Shown here piece after piece: positions 6,230 to 50,536 of a stretch of DNA of 64,000 bases; position 1 is the first letter of the stretch; each line of letters starts with the position of its first letter. The position numbers were made by a program, and so were the translations under genes. Source of the stretch: an uncultured Candidatus Saccharibacteria bacterium (lineage in GTDB: Bacteria; Patescibacteriota; Saccharimonadia; Saccharimonadales; JALRHH01); NCBI GenBank assembly GCA_964559915.1, contig CAZLJP010000001.1:129510-193509 (forward strand). Reading direction: 5' to 3'. Under the pieces are notes generated by a model. It did no database searches. It had not been told where the DNA came from and saw nothing but the letters and a program-made list of their open reading frames with translations.

Positions 6230-6433
6230 AAAAAATATCCCTTCTGCTCAATCAGCAAGAAAGGGATAGGATGTTCGTTAAAATCACCGTATATCTTTCC
6301 GCTTTTATGAGCGGCTAGATGGAGCACCTTCATGGATTAACGGCCTTTTCGTCTATCCCATGGGTTGCCGGCAGGTCATCGAGCTAGATCTCTCGCTGCA
6401 CTCTTTATATTTGTAAAAATTATCAAAGAAAGG
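6230..6433 (-). promoter_or_regulatory. Structured about 200-nt leader upstream of the orf87-metK operon (candidate riboswitch/attenuator)
   Basis: Minus-sense leader contains GAUGA (kink-turn-like) and CCGGCAACCC motifs. It ends in an imperfect 11-bp hairpin followed by AUAUUUUUU immediately before the start codon. Confidence 0.3.
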
Positions 6434-7956: not shown

Positions 7957-8670
7957 TTACTTATTTTGCGATATGGGGTGTTCAAGAAAGGGCCACATGC
8001 CCAAAACGTCTTCTACGCCAATGGTACTGGCCAATTTAATTGGATCAATAATTACAAAATGCCCGCGGCCCTTTTGTCGTAGTAGCCCACGTTTTTCCAT
8101 ACGGCCAATCATACGACTGGCAGTCTCACGTGTCATACTCAGTGAATCGGCAATATGTTGGTGACGGAACGGTATTGTCAGATACCAGCCGTCCTCGTGT
8201 AGCTCGCCATAACGGCCAATAAAATACAGCAAGCAATAGGCTACTTTGTCGTACGCATTACTAAAAGTCAGATTTTCCACACGAGATTTGAGGAAATACA
8301 TTTGCTCCATCTGCATATAGGTAAATTCTTTGTGCAGCTCTTCGTTGCTAGATAAGGCCTCTTCTAGTTTCTTTGGGGGCAAACTATACGCCACGATATC
8401 GGTGTATGCTTCCCTGTAGACATTCTGATGCACGTCCAGAAAGGCCCACATGATAGAGAATATTTCGCCTGGCTGATACATGATGTTGAAGTGCTGCGTG
8501 CCATTTTTTGCCAGAGTGTATTCTTTGACTAATCCTTGAGTCAAAAAATAAACCCCTTTCGGGGTTTCGTTGGCGTGTTGGATGATTTCACCCTTCTTGT
8601 AAGTTAGTTTTTGGCCCAACTTGAAGAGCTTCCCAATTTCGGTCTCAGATTTGTTACCGGCGTATTTCAT
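7957..8670 (-). CDS. Crp/Fnr family transcriptional regulator
   Basis: N-terminal cNMP-binding beta-roll and C-terminal HTH (RETASRMIGRMEKRGLL). 237 aa. Confidence 0.8.
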   Translation of the reverse strand: MKYAGNKSETEIGKLFKLGQKLTYKKGEIIQHANETPKGVYFLTQGLVKEYTLAKNGTQHFNIMYQPGEIFSIMWAFLDVHQNVYREAYTDIVAYSLPPKKLEEALSSNEELHKEFTYMQMEQMYFLKSRVENLTFSNAYDKVAYCLLYFIGRYGELHEDGWYLTIPFRHQHIADSLSMTRETASRMIGRMEKRGLLRQKGRGHFVIIDPIKLASTIGVEDVLGMWPFLEHPISQNK

Positions 8671-8793: not shown

Positions 8794-8868
8794 TGGGGAT
8801 TCGCCAAGTGGTAAGGCACTGGTTTCTGGTACCAGCATTCGGGGGTTCGAATCCCTCATCCCCAGCCA
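8794..8868 (+). tRNA. tRNA-Gln (anticodon CTG), CCA encoded
   Basis: Cloverleaf closely parallels E. coli tRNA-Gln (TGGGGAT/ATCCCCA acceptor, anticodon loop TTCTGGT, T-arm GGGGGTTCGAATCCCTC). Confidence 0.85.
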
Positions 8869-8870
8869 TG

Positions 8871-8913
8871 AAAAAGCGTTCATTTGCCAGCGGCAGATGG
8901 ACGCTTTTTCTTT
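8871..8913 (+). terminator. Rho-independent terminator after tRNA-Gln
   Basis: GCGTTCATTTGC...GCAGATGGACGC hairpin followed by TTTTTCTTT. Confidence 0.7.
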
Positions 8914-9014
8914 ACTCGGACGATAGGGATTCGAACGACCGAGTCCAGTGGACTCGGGCCGCCTGAAACCCGGAGGGTGACCGGAGCAAAAGTAATTTTC
9001 TTTTGCTGGTCAGG

Positions 9015-9044
9015 TCGAATCCCTCATCCCCAGCCATGAAAAAA
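9015..9044 (+). repeat. Direct repeat of the tRNA-Gln 3' end (T-loop half, T-stem, acceptor 3' strand, CCA and 8 nt of downstream flank)
   Basis: About 28-30 nt identical to 8847..8876 (TCGAATCCCTCATCCCCAGCCATGAAAAA). The 5' half of the tRNA is absent. Confidence 0.8.
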
Positions 9045-9070
9045 GACCGACATTTGTCGGTCTTTTTTTG
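9038..9070. terminator. Bidirectional rho-independent terminator
   Basis: AGACCGACA-TTT-GTCGGTCT perfect hairpin flanked by an A-run and a T-run. Serves the pseudo-tRNA copy (+) and gene 9084..9614 (-). Confidence 0.7.
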
Positions 9071-9083
9071 GATTATTTGAAGT

Positions 9084-9614
9084 CTAATCGCTGATATCAA
9101 AATCAATTGGATACATACCGAGCTTCACGTTAGTGCCGGATGTGCCTGTAGTATACGTACCCTGAAGCTCAAAGAAGCCTGACTTACCCTTCGCGGATGA
9201 ATTAAAGACTTTGTCTTCTTTCGCGGTAGTAAAGGTGCCCTTTCCCATACCTTCTAGATTGCCACCACCCATAGGCTGGACCTTGCCATCGTCCTGAATA
9301 TAGTAGAGTTGGTAGGATAATGTGGCGTACCCATCATTATTGGTCTTTGTACCATCATATTCAAAGCTGAGTACTTGGCCATTACCAAATTTCACGTTTT
9401 TTTCTGGATATTTAGTAACACTAGGGTCAGAGAAGAAAGCGTAGTCACCATTAGGGTCATCGAGCTTTACTTTGGACGCAGCGTCAGACGTTTGACTGCT
9501 CGAGCCCGTATTTGAACTCTTTGGCGAATCATCCTTCTGCGTAATCATAAAAACGGCTCCGCCGATTACAATGACTGCTCCTGCTCCGGCAAGTAATACA
9601 TTTGGCTTTGGCAT
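9084..9614 (-). CDS. Membrane-anchored/secreted hypothetical protein
   Basis: N-terminal TM/signal anchor (LLAGAGAVIVIGGAVFMI), S/T-rich linker, beta-rich C-terminal domain. Confidence 0.5.
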   Translation of the reverse strand: MPKPNVLLAGAGAVIVIGGAVFMITQKDDSPKSSNTGSSSQTSDAASKVKLDDPNGDYAFFSDPSVTKYPEKNVKFGNGQVLSFEYDGTKTNNDGYATLSYQLYYIQDDGKVQPMGGGNLEGMGKGTFTTAKEDKVFNSSAKGKSGFFELQGTYTTGTSGTNVKLGMYPIDFDISD

Positions 9615-10301: not shown

Positions 10302-12050
10302 CTACCAGCCGCCTCCGCCACCTCCGCCTCCGCCACCACCAGAAGAACCACCGCCACTTGAACCACCAGAGCTTGAACTGCTTGCGCTGGTATAGCTGGC
10401 TGCGCTGCTAAAATTAGTCATGGAGTTGCTAAATACAGCTGCGTTAAATGCCCCGTGCCCGGCATACCATTCAGGGCTCTTGCCAATTGATTCATAATAT
10501 TGGCCAATCCGCTGATTCCACTCTTTTTCCAAACCAAACAAAGTGGCGTAGGGCAGAACTTCTTCGTACAGCTTAACCAATTGGCCATCATCTTTTACGT
10601 CAACATCGCCAATCTTCAGTGCACCTTCTGGACTTTGTAGCATTTTGAGGCGTTCTACTTCGGCAACCTTGATGTACTGCTTAAGCCCATCAAGATAGCG
10701 CGCTAGCTCCAACCCCTTATCAGTCAACGGCCACAATGTATAGCTAGCTATAAGCACACCAATCGCTAGTATTAGTAAGGCCGGGTTGAGTAAGGGCACA
10801 GATAAAACTAACAATGTTAGGCCAAGTTTCTTGAGCCAGGCAGATTTTGCCGAATCTTTAGCGGTTAGACCATACTGGCCACGCATCAAATCACGAAGTT
10901 TTTTATCATTATTTTGCATACGACTATAGACAGTAGTGTTGTTCTGTAGCGATTTAAGCACCAACCGTTGTCCGACGCTAGTTTCACCAAATATGTCTTT
11001 CAGAATTTCTTGCTCCTCGGCCCTCAGCGAGCTGATATCTTTGATGATTTCAATGTCATATTCGGCCCTACGCCAAAAGCTTTTGGGTCTGGTCTCGATA
11101 ATCTTTGTGTAATGACGAACAGCAAAATCAAGAAGCTGTGCAGTAAACACAGAACGTCCTTTGGCTATAATAGCTGCCGCAGTTGTAACGCTGGTATCTT
11201 TAGGGGGCAGGTACTCTGTCACCACTGTTTGACGCTCATTACTACGCCTGGTCCAGCGGTAATACCGCACTATAATTAGAATCGTGCCGATTACGATGAG
11301 TGGTAGAGCAACAACCCAACCAATTAATATCCAAATGATAAGCTTTTCAAATAGTGTCTTTTGATACGGCTCAAATGTACCGGTCTTGAAACCGATTACG
11401 ATAGTTGCATTCTCGCTAAAACTTAGGTTGGCAGTGCTCACATGATAGCCGCTATCATCACGCACGATGCTACAAGGTACCGTTGCACCAGCAGGCCCCT
11501 GATAACACGCCGTGTCGCCCGTTAGCGCTGTTTGTATAGATGGGTCGAGTGTCAGATTTACTGTCAGATTATCTATTGGTACCAGCCACTCCGTGCCGTT
11601 GGTATCCCAATAGAACTCATCACGCCCCGTGTCAGCAAAATACTTAGTGACATCACGCTGGGTGTATGTAAGCACGTATGTCTGCAGACCGTGCACATAG
11701 CGGTCAGCATCACCAATCCTCACCACTTCGTTACCATTACTACTGTATGTTGTATAGGTTAATTTTGCACCACTCTCGTTAGTAACAGACCCTACAGAAA
11801 GACTCGTTGGGTGTCCATCGTATGATTGAGGAATAGCCCGCTCAATACCATGATTCTGGGCATATACAGGAAAATTAGCAGTAATTGTTTCTTTAGTGAG
11901 TAGTATGGAGCGACCGGCAGAATCCTTACTCAAATGATAATCAATACTGTAGTTGGTGATTACAAAATTATTGACCGCTGCGTGGGCTGATGACGGCAAC
12001 ACGAGAAAAACGGCCACAAGACTGAGACAAAAAAGCAGTAGCCGTTTCAT
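10302..12050 (-). CDS. DUF2207-family membrane protein (signal peptide, extracellular domain, two TM, Gly/Ser-rich C-tail)
   Basis: Start reassigned to MKRLLLFCLSLVAVFLVLPSSAHA signal peptide, which avoids overlap with the upstream permease. Ends in ...SSSSGGSSGGGSSGGGGGGGGGGGW, typical of DUF2207. Confidence 0.6.
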   Translation of the reverse strand: MKRLLLFCLSLVAVFLVLPSSAHAAVNNFVITNYSIDYHLSKDSAGRSILLTKETITANFPVYAQNHGIERAIPQSYDGHPTSLSVGSVTNESGAKLTYTTYSSNGNEVVRIGDADRYVHGLQTYVLTYTQRDVTKYFADTGRDEFYWDTNGTEWLVPIDNLTVNLTLDPSIQTALTGDTACYQGPAGATVPCSIVRDDSGYHVSTANLSFSENATIVIGFKTGTFEPYQKTLFEKLIIWILIGWVVALPLIVIGTILIIVRYYRWTRRSNERQTVVTEYLPPKDTSVTTAAAIIAKGRSVFTAQLLDFAVRHYTKIIETRPKSFWRRAEYDIEIIKDISSLRAEEQEILKDIFGETSVGQRLVLKSLQNNTTVYSRMQNNDKKLRDLMRGQYGLTAKDSAKSAWLKKLGLTLLVLSVPLLNPALLILAIGVLIASYTLWPLTDKGLELARYLDGLKQYIKVAEVERLKMLQSPEGALKIGDVDVKDDGQLVKLYEEVLPYATLFGLEKEWNQRIGQYYESIGKSPEWYAGHGAFNAAVFSNSMTNFSSAASYTSASSSSSGGSSGGGSSGGGGGGGGGGGW

Positions 12051-12073
12051 ATGCACAGTATACACCCAGTGAG

Positions 12074-12883
12074 TTACTGCACTGCGCGACGACGAAACAG
12101 CAAGGTAGCAATTGGAATTGCAACAATCAACACACCAATGCACCAAGCAACGGCCAGCCAGCCATGATTACCGACTGGCGTACCGAGCATAAGTGCCCGC
12201 GTAGCCTCAATGATGTGGGTGATTGGCTGATTCTCTGCGAATGCCTTAAGGAATCGGTTCATTCCTTCAGTAGGAACAAATGCACTACTGGCAAATGTTA
12301 GGGGGAATACAATGATAAAGCTGAGCCATTGCACCGCCTCTACGCTCTTAGATAAAAGACCCATGATTGCCGCTAGCCACGAAAACATGAGTGTGAAGAG
12401 CAGCAGAATACCAACAATAGCTAACCATTGTAGCGGGCTTGCGTGGCTACGAAAGCCCATGATGAGTCCGGTTACTATCATCACGATAGTCGAGATACCG
12501 TTGCGGAATATATCAGAAATAATATGTCCGTTCAGCACAGCCACATTACTCATGGGCAATGAACGAAAGCGGTCAACGATGCCTTTTTGAAGGTCATTGG
12601 AAATAGCAATTGCGGTGGTAGTAGAGCCAAACGCCAATGTCTGAACAATAATACCCGCCATCAGGAAGTCTAGATAGCCAATACCATTTGGCAAAGCCAT
12701 TGAGATAGCTCCGCCAAAAACAGCAGAGAACAAGACCAAGAACATGATTGGCTGGAAGAATGTGCCTAGTAGCTGGTCTGTGTTGCGCAGGATGTGACGG
12801 CTACTACGCTGAATCATCAGTAGTGAGTCTGTCAGTGCTTGTACCGGGCGAGATTTTTTCTCAAAATGTAATTCGGTTGCCAT
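12074..12883 (-). CDS. ABC-2 type transporter permease
   Basis: Six-TM ABC-2 architecture. Directly downstream of the ATPase with a 1-nt gap. Confidence 0.75.
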   Translation of the reverse strand: MATELHFEKKSRPVQALTDSLLMIQRSSRHILRNTDQLLGTFFQPIMFLVLFSAVFGGAISMALPNGIGYLDFLMAGIIVQTLAFGSTTTAIAISNDLQKGIVDRFRSLPMSNVAVLNGHIISDIFRNGISTIVMIVTGLIMGFRSHASPLQWLAIVGILLLFTLMFSWLAAIMGLLSKSVEAVQWLSFIIVFPLTFASSAFVPTEGMNRFLKAFAENQPITHIIEATRALMLGTPVGNHGWLAVAWCIGVLIVAIPIATLLFRRRAVQ

Positions 12884-41349: not shown

Positions 41350-41386
41350 GCAAAACAAAAACACTCTGGTAAAACAGAGTGTTTTT
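41350..41386 (-). terminator. Hairpin plus T-run following the tRNA-Leu 3'-end copy
   Basis: Perfect 9-bp stem AACACTCTG/CAGAGTGTT. The minus sense is followed by TTTTTGTTTTG. Confidence 0.55.
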
Positions 41387-41389
41387 ATA

Positions 41390-41405
41390 TGGTGGGCAAG
41401 GAGGG
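41390..41405 (-). repeat. Direct repeat of the tRNA-Leu(TAA) 3' end (CCA, discriminator, acceptor 3' strand, T-stem 3' strand)
   Basis: TGGTGGGCAAGGAGGG is identical to the 3' end of the tRNA-Leu gene 150 bp away. A structured about 100-nt segment lies between the two. Confidence 0.75.
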
Positions 41406-41510
41406 GCCTCGCTACGCTCGCGCACTGCGTCATGCTCGGTGTAAACACCTGCGCGTGACTTCGTTGGCGTCGAACCCTTGCTTTGCAGTACGGGTTCTCG
41501 ATGTCACACC

Positions 41511-41543
41511 AACAAAAAACCGGTCAAAAGACCGGCTCTTTGT
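41511..41543 (-). terminator. Rho-independent terminator after tRNA-Leu(TAA)
   Basis: AGCCGGTC-TTTT-GACCGGTT hairpin followed by TTTTTTG (minus sense). Confidence 0.7.
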
Positions 41544-45334: not shown

Positions 45335-45384
45335 AAACAAATTATAACAGATTAGGCAGTGCGAGTCCTTTGTGGGTTGAATTA

Positions 45385-45512
45385 AAAAACACCAATTTGC
45401 TCGGTGTTTTACAGGCATAGATTTTACGAAATCATTGGTGCGGGCAAGGAGACTCAAGGCTCCCGACCGCAAGCGGTGGTAGCATCCTGGCCAGTTAATT
45501 ATTTTTGAAGAG
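45385..45512. repeat. 129-bp direct repeat copy (b); immediately downstream (minus sense) of tRNA-Gly and its terminator
   Basis: First 21 nt (TGGTGCGGGCAAGGAGACTCA) are identical to the tRNA-Gly 3' end including CCA. The remainder matches copy (a) only. Confidence 0.8.
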
Positions 45513-45544
45513 GCCAGGAGTTTGAATCTGGCTCAAACCAAGCA

Positions 45545-45572
45545 AAAACCCGGATTCTCATCCGGGTCTTGG
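45545..45572 (-). terminator. Rho-independent terminator after tRNA-Gly
   Basis: CCCGGA-TGAGAA-TCCGGG hairpin followed by TTTTTGCTT (minus sense). Confidence 0.7.
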
Positions 45573-45574
45573 CT

Positions 45575-45650
45575 TGGTGCGGGCAAGGAGACTCAAACTC
45601 CTGGCCTCTTCCTTGGCAAGGAAGCGCTCTATCAACTGAGCTATGCCCGC
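45575..45650 (-). tRNA. tRNA-Gly (anticodon GCC), CCA encoded
   Basis: Acceptor GCGGGCA/TGCCCGC, anticodon loop TTGCCAA, T-arm AGGAGTTTGAGTCTCCT. Confidence 0.85.
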
Positions 45651-46526: not shown

Positions 46527-46595
46527 TAGCCTCAGCTAACGCTGTTCACCAAACTGGTAATTCACGTTGCTCTCGCATCCAGTTCTCGTCTGGGG

Positions 46596-46642
46596 CCCTC
46601 CAGCCAAGAAAAATGGATCACGCTTCGGTGATCCATTTTTCT
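46596..46642. terminator. Bidirectional terminator (18-bp perfect inverted repeat)
   Basis: CCAAGAAAAATGGATCAC-GCTTCG-GTGATCCATTTTTCTTGG lies between the hydrolase gene (+) and tRNA-Phe (-). Confidence 0.7.
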
Positions 46643-49772: not shown

Positions 49773-49878
49773 CTGAAAGTCTTGAACCCCAAAAAGTGGA
49801 GGTGAGAGTAACAGGCCCTATGTTTGTATGCGCACCAGAGCTTAATCTTAGGTATTGGATGAGGTGCTATAGGGGCTG

Positions 49879-50289: not shown

Positions 50290-50536
50290 GAGCTTATATA
50301 GTTACATATTATTGTTTGACTGCAAATAGCTTATAATCTTTAACAAGTCGCTTACGCGACCTACATCCTAGAGCCAGCCGCAAGGAAAGGTATGGAAATC
50401 AAATCAACAGAAAGAGACAGCTCGTCATGGGTACTTCTTTCTGTTGTCATTGCTGGAAACGGTGATGGGTGGCCGAAAGGTTGCCGCTCGTGGCGAGCTT
50501 TTTGTTTGCCGAATACAAACTTAGAAGGGTAATATT

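Follow-up and report, generated by a model that had tools for sequence, protein, structure and literature searches.

A gene-less, hairpin-rich insert between two copies of a tRNA-Gln 3′ end in a Saccharibacteria genome, and similar elements at other tRNA genes

The insert behind tRNA-Gln

The 64,000-nt stretch of DNA analysed here (the window; positions 129,510 to 193,509 of contig CAZLJP010000001.1, from an uncultured Candidatus Saccharibacteria bacterium) carries an intact tRNA-Gln(CTG) gene whose own 3′ end is repeated a short distance downstream, the two copies enclosing most of a 168-nt, hairpin-rich insert that is the subject of this work. A first reading of the bare sequence (the original prediction) had proposed a duplication of 28-30 nt at this site, and had taken it either for the attachment-core scar of an integrative element since deleted, or for a miniature element mimicking a tRNA 3′ end. 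The duplication was borne out as an exact 29-nt repeat, TCGAATCCCTCATCCCCAGCCATGAAAAA, made of the last 22 nt of the tRNA and 7 flanking nt, which occurs exactly twice in the window (Table 1). Both of the proposed copies are real, although the end given for the first, 8876, lies one base too far. Copy 1 spans the T-loop from its second base, the 3′ strands of the T-stem and acceptor stem, the discriminator G, the CCA and the 7-nt flank. No 29-mer match was obtained in shuffled sequence (n = 100), even when three mismatches were tolerated.

Each copy was also predicted to have its own terminator, and both terminators are present. Terminator 1, which belongs to the insert, has a folding energy of -28.6 kcal/mol (z = -8.3); with an A-run before it and a T-run after it, it could act in both directions. 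Terminator 2 could likewise work bidirectionally, also ends a convergent gene for a 176-aa protein, and was revealed by alignment to be the counterpart of the single terminator, AAAAAAGACCCGG..CTGGGTCTTTTTT, of an orthologous locus that lacks the insert (L132, described below). Neither ARAGORN nor the Rfam model RF00005 recognised a tRNA or pseudo-tRNA on copy 2, the upstream gene being the only one called. The sequence of the locus, insert included, was recovered in an independent assembly from another sequencing run (L147), in which the contig break falls within the tRNA and not within the insert; the insert is therefore no assembly artefact.

Besides terminator 1 and the 22 tRNA-derived nt of copy 2 (9015-9036), the insert contains three hairpins and a feature that the original prediction had not described, namely an inverted arm reproducing the variable-loop and T-arm region of the tRNA as its reverse complement. 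The 18 nt of this arm are 89% complementary to 8839-8856, and its core, AGGGATTCGAAC (8925-8936), agrees at all 12 positions with the reverse complement of tRNA bases GTTCGAATCCCT. The stretch 8925-8934 is also complementary to 9015-9024 at 10/10 positions; these arms, however, copy the local tRNA and are not element-specific ends. Two of the hairpins, CCGAGTC...GACTCGG (hairpin A) and hairpin C, had been named in the original prediction and were found as described; hairpin B, between them, is imperfect, with one G.T pair on the + strand. In RNA and DNA folds alike, a closing helix of 10 bp (P1, 8925-8934 with 9015-9024) encloses hairpins A-C, whilst in an alternative fold the inverted arm can pair with the tRNA itself, placing terminator 1 at the tip of a long hairpin. 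Compared with shuffles, the 121-nt unit 8916-9036 folds at -52.7 kcal/mol as RNA (z = -4.2) and at -32.3 kcal/mol as DNA (z = -5.9). In a single strand, the inverted arm and the displaced 3′ end are thus predicted to pair, closing the hairpin domain with a duplex version of the target site.

The insert holds no credible gene, open reading frames (ORFs) across it reaching at most 64 aa. Its neighbours are a Crp-type regulator and the 176-aa protein, which has no Pfam match, with no integrase adjacent; nor was there an integrase among the best 25 of 88 Pfam families from a scan of all window ORFs. Screening the whole window against Rfam 15 at the gathering threshold returned only tRNAs, a SAM riboswitch and LOOT, and the insert at E <= 10 gave only terminator-like chance matches. 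tmRNA, Y-RNA-like and other known tRNA mimics and self-cleaving ribozymes were rejected as identities of the insert, having no Rfam match even at this cut-off. A promoter-like site on the minus strand (9100-9072) was judged spurious, as its start would fall inside terminator 2.

Table 1. Positions of the features at the tRNA-Gln locus and of the sister elements in the window
Feature	Position	Strand	Basis
tRNA-Gln(CTG), intact, encoded CCA	8794-8868	+	ARAGORN; Rfam tRNA model, 59.1 bits
168-nt insert, one possible register (the repeat permits others)	8869-9036	+	Alignment with L132
Direct repeat copy 1	8847-8875	+	Exact 29-mer
Terminator 1, part of insert	8871-8909	+	19 predicted pairs, 3-nt loop
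Inverted arm, reverse complement of tRNA variable-loop and T-arm region	8925-8942	+	Repeat search
Hairpin A, CCGAGTCC-AGT-GGACTCGG	8939-8957	+	Folds
Central hairpin B region, GGCCGCC-TGAAACCCGGA-GGGTGACC	8957-8982	+	Folds
Hairpin C, GCAAAAG-TAATTTT-CTTTTGC	8986-9006	+	Repeat search and folds
Direct repeat copy 2, displaced tRNA 3′ end	9015-9043	+	Exact 29-mer
Terminator 2, AAAAAAGACCGACA-TT-TGTCGGTCTTTTTTT	9039-9069	+	Terminator scan: 15-pair stem and T-run
Sister element behind tRNA-Leu(TAA)	41356-41543	-	
Leu(TAA): terminator	41512-41543	-	
Leu(TAA): inverted/direct T-arm hairpin	41470-41501	-	
Leu(TAA): module	41406-41469	-	
Leu(TAA): 16-nt 3′-end copy	from 41405	-	
Leu(TAA): second terminator	41356-41386	-	
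Sister element behind tRNA-Gly(GCC)	45384-45577	-	
Gly(GCC): terminator	45538-45577	-	
Gly(GCC): inverted arm	45507-45525	-	
Gly(GCC): 22-nt 3′-end copy	45436-45457	-	
Gly(GCC): second terminator	45384-45410	-	

Empty, occupied and phage-borne sites

Ten related Crp loci were fetched for comparison, the best Crp relatives (56-57% identity) being found in metagenome-assembled genomes of Candidatus Saccharibacteria. L132 is an empty site: its tRNA is identical at 75/75 positions and is followed by one terminator, matching terminator 2, and by the same convergent 176-aa gene, whilst terminator 1 is missing. Once 8869-9036 is removed, the window is collinear with L132, the sole sizeable gap left being one of 20 nt. 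The proposal that an attachment-type direct repeat bounds inserted DNA here is thereby upheld, L132 lacking exactly the 168 nt and phage contigs carrying the repeat core (see below). L132 is the only orthologous empty site with an identical tRNA; L133 is also empty, with a different neighbour gene.

The same comparison revealed a switch of ancestry at the tRNA (window 7957-8670 versus 9084-9614), the Crp protein being only 56% identical between the window and L132, the tRNA 100% and the 176-aa protein 92%, which suggests recombination between lineages anchored at the tRNA. At a further locus (L136, 1-750) no tRNA-Gln lies beside the Crp-type gene and a 188-aa ORF takes its place.

The original prediction had looked to the orthologues for a choice between a scar and a conserved element, and here the outcome among distant relatives was mixed: alongside the two empty sites, an element is present at the tRNA-Gln gene of five other Saccharibacteria, downstream of it in L003, L134, L135 and L138 and upstream in L137. 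The four downstream modules (that is, the hairpin-bearing parts) are related to or different from that of the window. In L003 the inverted arm and three hairpins are kept with changed stems and an identical CAGTGG loop, and hairpin C has the counterpart GCAGAA-TATTTTG-TTCTGC. The loop motif CC(A/G)GTGG of hairpin A is common to related elements; the stems of this hairpin show paired changes in L003, L018, L073 and L134, and the loop is retained in L003, L018 and L134. From hairpin B, CCTGAAACCCG(A/G)AGGGT is also found in L138.

The second tRNA copy also differs between loci. It has shrunk to 11 nt in L003, where ~1.7 kb of other genes come next, and to ~10 nt in L138, whilst in L134 it amounts to the 3′ third of the tRNA, with a 105-nt module inside its T-loop. 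A homologous module in L137 lies on the upstream side of the tRNA, within the anticodon loop of a partial 5′ tRNA copy, and in L131 the order is a 17-nt 5′ fragment, the module and a different tRNA-Gln allele. The tRNA-Gln locus is thus a hot spot, and in every case the module occupies a loop within a partial copy of the tRNA beside an intact gene. The homologous modules of L131 (1-250, -) and L137 (1-300, -) both start with TGA(A/G)AA(C/T)TGCC(A/T)GTGGCA(G/A)TTTGCAAG and lie in the D-loop or anticodon loop of the partial 5′ copies upstream of tRNA-Gln; the complete tRNA-Gln that follows the L131 module has a different acceptor stem. A transposon-style 5-bp target duplication (TCGAA) with a direct upstream arm, prompted by L138, was considered and rejected as not general, since the arm is a reverse complement in the window, at tRNA-Gly and in the metagenome set described below.

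We also found the 22-mer of the repeat, without a full tRNA, in two viral contigs that are likely to derive from Saccharibacteria phages. In one of them (L140, 8393-9395), a 33-nt piece of the tRNA-Gln 3′ end is separated by 127 nt from a convergent gene for a small, Xer-like tyrosine recombinase of 280 aa (Phage_integrase, E = 2.8e-39), with a lysozyme-like gene on the other side of the core. In the other (L139, 1125-1190, -), the tRNA-Gln 3′ end is represented by ~37 nt, behind which a separate terminator stands; the phage-borne copy hence brings a terminator, as does the insert in the window. Just upstream in L139, GCTGGG could pair with CCCAGC of the 3′ end, like GCTGG at 9006-9010 of the window. 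With phage contigs carrying it beside an integrase, the tRNA-Gln 3′ end appears to be a genuine attachment core in this clade. Taken together, the pair of inserted and empty sites, a repeat of attachment type and the fact that phages use this core make it very probable that the insert arose by recombination into the tRNA 3′ end.

What recombined is a separate matter. A full-size prophage or conjugative element may once have occupied tRNA-Gln and lost its interior by deletion, leaving only the flanks of its attachment sites, with a terminator on one side and hairpins on the other. Such an origin would fit the existence of phages with the exact core, whose tRNA 3′ copy carries its own terminator; the second copies in L003 and L138, which appear to be decaying; and the documented stacking of decayed elements at tRNA 3′ ends (PMC5704250). 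It would fit, too, with a module type of gut samples found in five viral contigs, each time at most ~1.2 kb from the contig end. In these contigs, a lysin gene, a diverged tRNA 3′ end and a terminator immediately precede the arrays of the module, which so lie just outside a prophage end, and the stretch from lysin gene to core is a run of short GC-rich hairpins. The modules themselves, however, had no match in the phage attachment flanks, catalogued phages or viral contigs compared: the attachment flanks of L139 and L140 contain neither inverted arm nor hairpin module, no similarity to the modules was detected in 50,697 catalogued phage records, and scans of viral contigs with the Saccharibacteria module motifs yielded nothing useful beyond a chance match in a coding region. 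A phage derivation of the module was rejected on these grounds, the two matches of a pattern scan of viral contigs being chance ones in coding regions. Further evidence on a deleted larger element comes from the sizes and spacing of similar elements elsewhere.

Recurrence, arm matching and folding

Three of the nine tRNA genes in the window, those for Gln, Leu(TAA) and Gly(GCC), share the same build of terminator, inverted T-arm piece, hairpins, 3′-end copy and second terminator. The latter two had been named as matching cases in the original prediction, and this was confirmed, with a 16-nt copy 138 nt downstream of tRNA-Leu(TAA) and a 22-nt copy 117 nt downstream of tRNA-Gly(GCC). The Gly(GCC) inverted arm is a perfect 19-nt copy of the variable-loop and T-arm region. 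The core of the Leu(TAA) module, CAGGTGTTTACACCGAGCA, reappears as CAGGAGTTTACTCCGAGCA behind tRNA-Gln in L135, with the paired stem swap GGTG/CACC to GGAG/CTCC. The three complete modules share no similarity with one another, within a window that covers only 64 kb of the genome.

Several other observations concern the window tRNAs. In the Gly(GCC) element, a 27-nt insert separates a direct partial T-stem copy from the T-loop. Behind tRNA-Phe (46579-46605, -) and tRNA-Leu(CAG) (49777-49790, +), the terminator gives way to sequence that looks like the gene's own T-arm and acceptor in reverse complement, and no direct 3′-end copy is found behind either; these stretches may be partial or decayed elements. 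In the 3′ flanks of all window tRNAs, the terminator stems extend upstream to take in the CCA and acceptor end, e.g. CACCAACAAAG...CTTTGTTGGTG in the case of Leu(TAA), and transcription reading through would therefore leave the tRNA 3′ end sequestered within a long hairpin.

We then scanned metagenomes with the pattern GGTTCGAATCCCTC, a gap of 55-85 nt and GGGATTCGAAC, i.e. a T-arm followed by its inverse, and matched at least 120 loci; because the inverted arm was demanded, the scan describes the class, and any frequency among all tRNAs that is drawn from it is biased. The tRNAs called by ARAGORN at the scanned loci are single and of ten kinds, namely Val, four Ser isoacceptors, Gln, Tyr, Ala, Arg and Lys. 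None of the 120 listed loci has its inverted arm within an opposing tRNA gene, so that a convergent or minus-strand pseudo-tRNA, for which there is no tRNA model match either, was rejected. In 57 distinct elements, 12 nt or more of the tRNA 3′ end are repeated in direct orientation within ~170 nt of the inverted arm; these copies are often of 18-22 nt, and the terminator is also duplicated in some. Among the unselected tRNAs of the same loci, at least 12 of 59 carry both arms as well. Elements range from roughly 120 to 240 bp, with a variable flanking repeat of 16-58 nt (29, 22 and 16 nt in the window, up to ~58 nt in L037), and tandem arrays exist, e.g. L015.

This uniformity bears on the notion of a deleted larger element. 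Random deletion should yield many sizes and some gene fragments; here, at most ~170 nt separate the arms, and at loci without a nearby copy none was found farther off in the up to 9 kb searched, except for two at 262 and 414 nt. When the downstream ORFs at ten such loci were translated and read by eye, they proved mostly housekeeping, with a sole integrase (L114) beside a different tRNA. The gap from terminator to inverted arm is only 10-25 nt at locus after locus, a constancy not expected of random decay. The stems, moreover, change in pairs, which argues against free decay. Whilst the original prediction was right to see an attachment-type repeat, its suggestion of an element since deleted, if taken to mean a random decay scar, is not supported, in view of a compact build that recurs at three window tRNAs and more than 100 loci, and its alternative, a mini-element mimicking a tRNA 3′ end, is the better fit. 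We consider a scar of a full-size element unlikely.

Related modules are also found behind different tRNAs. One module type occurs behind Val, Gln and Ser tRNAs in gut samples, and pairs that are 74-89% identical occur in other genomes, with related copies at several sites of one genome in L037, L024 and L071. The L037 modules that follow tRNA-Lys and tRNA-Arg share 89% identity, and their arms differ as a matched pair (G:C versus A:T), the inverted arm having G/A where the T-loop has C/T. Two modules so alike in a single genome, each with arms re-fitted to its tRNA, again speak against the decay of a larger element. In a set of 87 elements, pairing between the outer part of the inverted arm and an acceptor strand was stronger for the element's own strand (-5.79 kcal/mol) than for those of others (-4.57 +/- 0.22 kcal/mol), and the observed value was reached in 0 of 200 permutations.

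Template switching (quasi-palindrome mutagenesis) can make inverted repeats match without selection. The whole insert might be a local replication artefact, with template switches by the nascent strand, at the palindromic terminator and at the T-loop (TTCGAA, nearly a palindrome), building first an inverted and then a direct copy. The tRNA 3′ end, terminator and inverted arm do form one long quasi-palindrome, and at some loci the inverted arm opens with the CCA complement right after the terminator. Hairpin modules that are unrelated to the tRNA, yet homologous across tRNAs and genomes, are left unexplained by such switching, as is the difference between terminators 1 and 2 at the locus. As the origin of the insert it is very improbable; as a side process it may keep the arms matched.

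Folds of all 57 elements show the arm-arm helix closing one to four hairpins. Of the loops, C(GNA)G triloops make up 24/51, and GNRA/GNNA tetraloops are also abundant; the former are typical of stable DNA hairpins and GNRA-type tetraloops of RNA. A 15-member gut family folds into a five-way junction, with GC/CG swaps in two hairpins and changes from U.G to U.A on the tRNA-sense strand. Fold energies point both ways across elements, and RNA and single-stranded DNA have been noted to be hard to distinguish by sequence alone (PMC5737381).

These structures could instead belong to a small RNA of the host, made by read-through of the tRNA terminator or by co-transcription, in which the copy of the acceptor/CCA end could offer a decoy or partner to enzymes or toxins with affinity for the 3′ ends of tRNAs; the repeat would then be functional. 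The element is co-oriented with a strongly transcribed tRNA gene, and a related element lies at the same tRNA in relatives whose neighbour protein is only 56% identical. The paired stem changes, the U.G to U.A changes on the sense strand and the GNRA tetraloops would all suit an RNA, as would a closing helix in which 3′ sequence of the tRNA itself mimics stacked acceptor and T stems. Of 60 elements, 43 fold more stably on the sense strand (p = 0.0002), but the window's three elements slightly favour the opposite strand, and the frequent C(GNA)G triloops are of the DNA-hairpin type. In addition, a strong terminator separates tRNA and module with no room for a promoter, the CCA is often paired within a long helix and not free, no Rfam family matches, and the close relatives represented by L132 and L133 manage without the element. 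We regard a host RNA as unlikely. If it were real, it would represent a widespread and uncatalogued class of RNAs mimicking tRNA ends.

Strain variation was seen at some scanned loci. L038, L041 and L045 are strain variants of one tRNA-Ser element, differing by a deletion or by a 1.1-kb insertion with breakpoints inside module hairpin loops, and in L022 and L062 a gene region starts within another hairpin loop.

Three further features of the window lie apart from the elements. The LOOT RNA (Rfam RF03000, 55.7 bits) is at 50365-50485 (+), ~630 nt downstream of tRNA-Leu(CAG). The SAM riboswitch (S-box, 53.7 bits) is at 6288-6413 (-), upstream of the gene for S-adenosylmethionine synthetase, so identified via the homologous locus L001. 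A DUF2207 membrane protein (10302-12146, -) has a long serine/glycine tail ending in twelve glycines and a tryptophan.

A proposed miniature integrative cassette and its nearest known counterparts

We favour, with a probability of about 0.55, the reading of the insert as a gene-less, miniature and non-autonomous integrative cassette, a member of a large undescribed class at tRNA 3′ ends. That the compact unit is itself the element, and no random remnant, is argued by its narrow size and constant order of parts, by arms re-fitted to each tRNA, by related cores that one genome carries at different tRNAs, and by stems that change in pairs. No equivalent element was found described in the full-text literature, the coverage of which is incomplete, so that this counts as weak evidence.

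tRNA 3′ ends are classic landing sites of phages and genomic islands. In the scheme that we propose, incoming DNA would have recombined with the tRNA gene in or just past the T-loop, like tRNA-targeting phages, providing a replacement tRNA 3′ end (from 8847) together with its own terminator, so that the tRNA would stay intact and still terminate. The original 3′ end and the original terminator would have been displaced 168 nt downstream, giving rise to the direct repeat. Since the cassette encodes no protein, it would have to rely on a recombinase from elsewhere; a candidate is a small Xer-like tyrosine recombinase, as is found beside the same core in the phage contig, and the folded arm pair may be what it acts on, much as folded attachment sites are used in CTX phage and integron cassettes. 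Recombination between the direct repeats would excise the cassette precisely, restoring the empty site seen in the relative. The recombination, the outside recombinase and a single-stranded moving form are inferred.

A number of points weigh against this reading. No recombinase is linked to the elements, the sole integrase among the loci examined being beside another tRNA, and the phage attachment regions for tRNA-Gln are devoid of inverted arm and module. The cassette is known here from integrated copies only. A double-stranded circle of 170-240 bp would be a poor substrate for recombination, and the reading leaves unexplained how both arms come to fit a new tRNA. The sense-strand changes from U.G to U.A and the GNRA loops fit selection on RNA at least as well as on DNA. 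The three elements in the window are mutually dissimilar, unlike a recently active repeat family, and the frequency estimates are biased by a scan that had selected for the inverted arm.

A bolder version of the cassette reading, which we hold to be quite doubtful, would make these new minimal mobile elements of ~120-240 nt that move as folded single strands, possibly as small circles, by means of a host or phage Xer-like recombinase, re-copying both arms from each new tRNA. Each would comprise nothing but a replacement tRNA 3′ end with its terminator and a hairpin-rich core, the two arms of which fold into a duplex version of the T-arm and acceptor region of the target tRNA. If so, no site-specific integrative element known would be smaller, and they would be a widespread but hidden source of variation beside tRNA genes.

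Even in its simpler form, a common gene-less structured cassette at tRNA 3′ ends would alter how attachment scars and tRNA fragments are read in annotation and island mapping, and would point to DNA movement that needs no internal gene. The cassettes add attachment cores beside tRNA genes and, with breakpoints inside hairpin loops in several strains, may be a motor of variation there. Whichever reading is right, cultivable Saccharibacteria-host pairs and gut Actinobacteria-like genomes offer direct access to the class.

Among the closest known systems are the islands and prophages that tyrosine integrases insert at tRNA 3′ ends (Islander type; PMC4383910). As with these, the tRNA is regenerated by the incoming sequence, a displaced 3′ fragment forms a direct repeat at the far end, a relative has the empty site (L132) and the same tRNA-Gln core lies beside a phage integrase. 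Unlike them, the cassette measures 168 bp and not kilobases, has neither integrase nor cargo, and holds an inverted copy of the core together with a conserved hairpin domain; its identity to the tRNA begins inside the T-loop, in contrast to the phage cores of 30-37 nt.

Cis-mobilisable elements (CIMEs) are decayed integrative elements, kilobase-sized and recognisably derived from a parent element. The cassette shares with them two flanking attachment sites, the absence of recombination genes, the need for an outside integrase and tandem stacks at tRNA 3′ ends. It differs in its narrow size (~120-240 bp), in having both arms fitted to each tRNA, and in that no parent was found in phage records, viral contigs or the L139/L140 flanks, conjugative elements not having been searched.

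Miniature inverted-repeat transposable elements are likewise small and gene-less, with inverted arms around a structured core, presence or absence at the same site and related copies in one genome (as in L037, L024 and L071). The arms of the cassette, by contrast, are copies of the neighbouring tRNA, its flanking repeat is of variable length (16-58 nt) where a short fixed target duplication would be expected, it lies strictly behind a tRNA terminator, and the copies in the window are mutually unrelated.

Finally, the attP(+) site of CTX phage consists of two inverted Xer sites ~90 nt apart in a folded single strand, and integron attC sites are folded likewise. The attC site has been described as a single-stranded DNA structure (PMC5737381). 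Differing from both, the cassette targets the T-arm and 3′ end of a tRNA instead of dif or attI, with essentially no genome between its first copy and its inverted copy. The resemblance to folded single-strand elements, which we take as a lead and not as a test, lies in the order of parts, namely target copy, element, inverted target copy, a structured spacer of ~80-130 nt and a hybrid target copy, and in an arm pair that can fold into a duplex target, the lack of an internal integrase, the common DNA-type C(GNA)G loops and the cassette-like tandem arrays.

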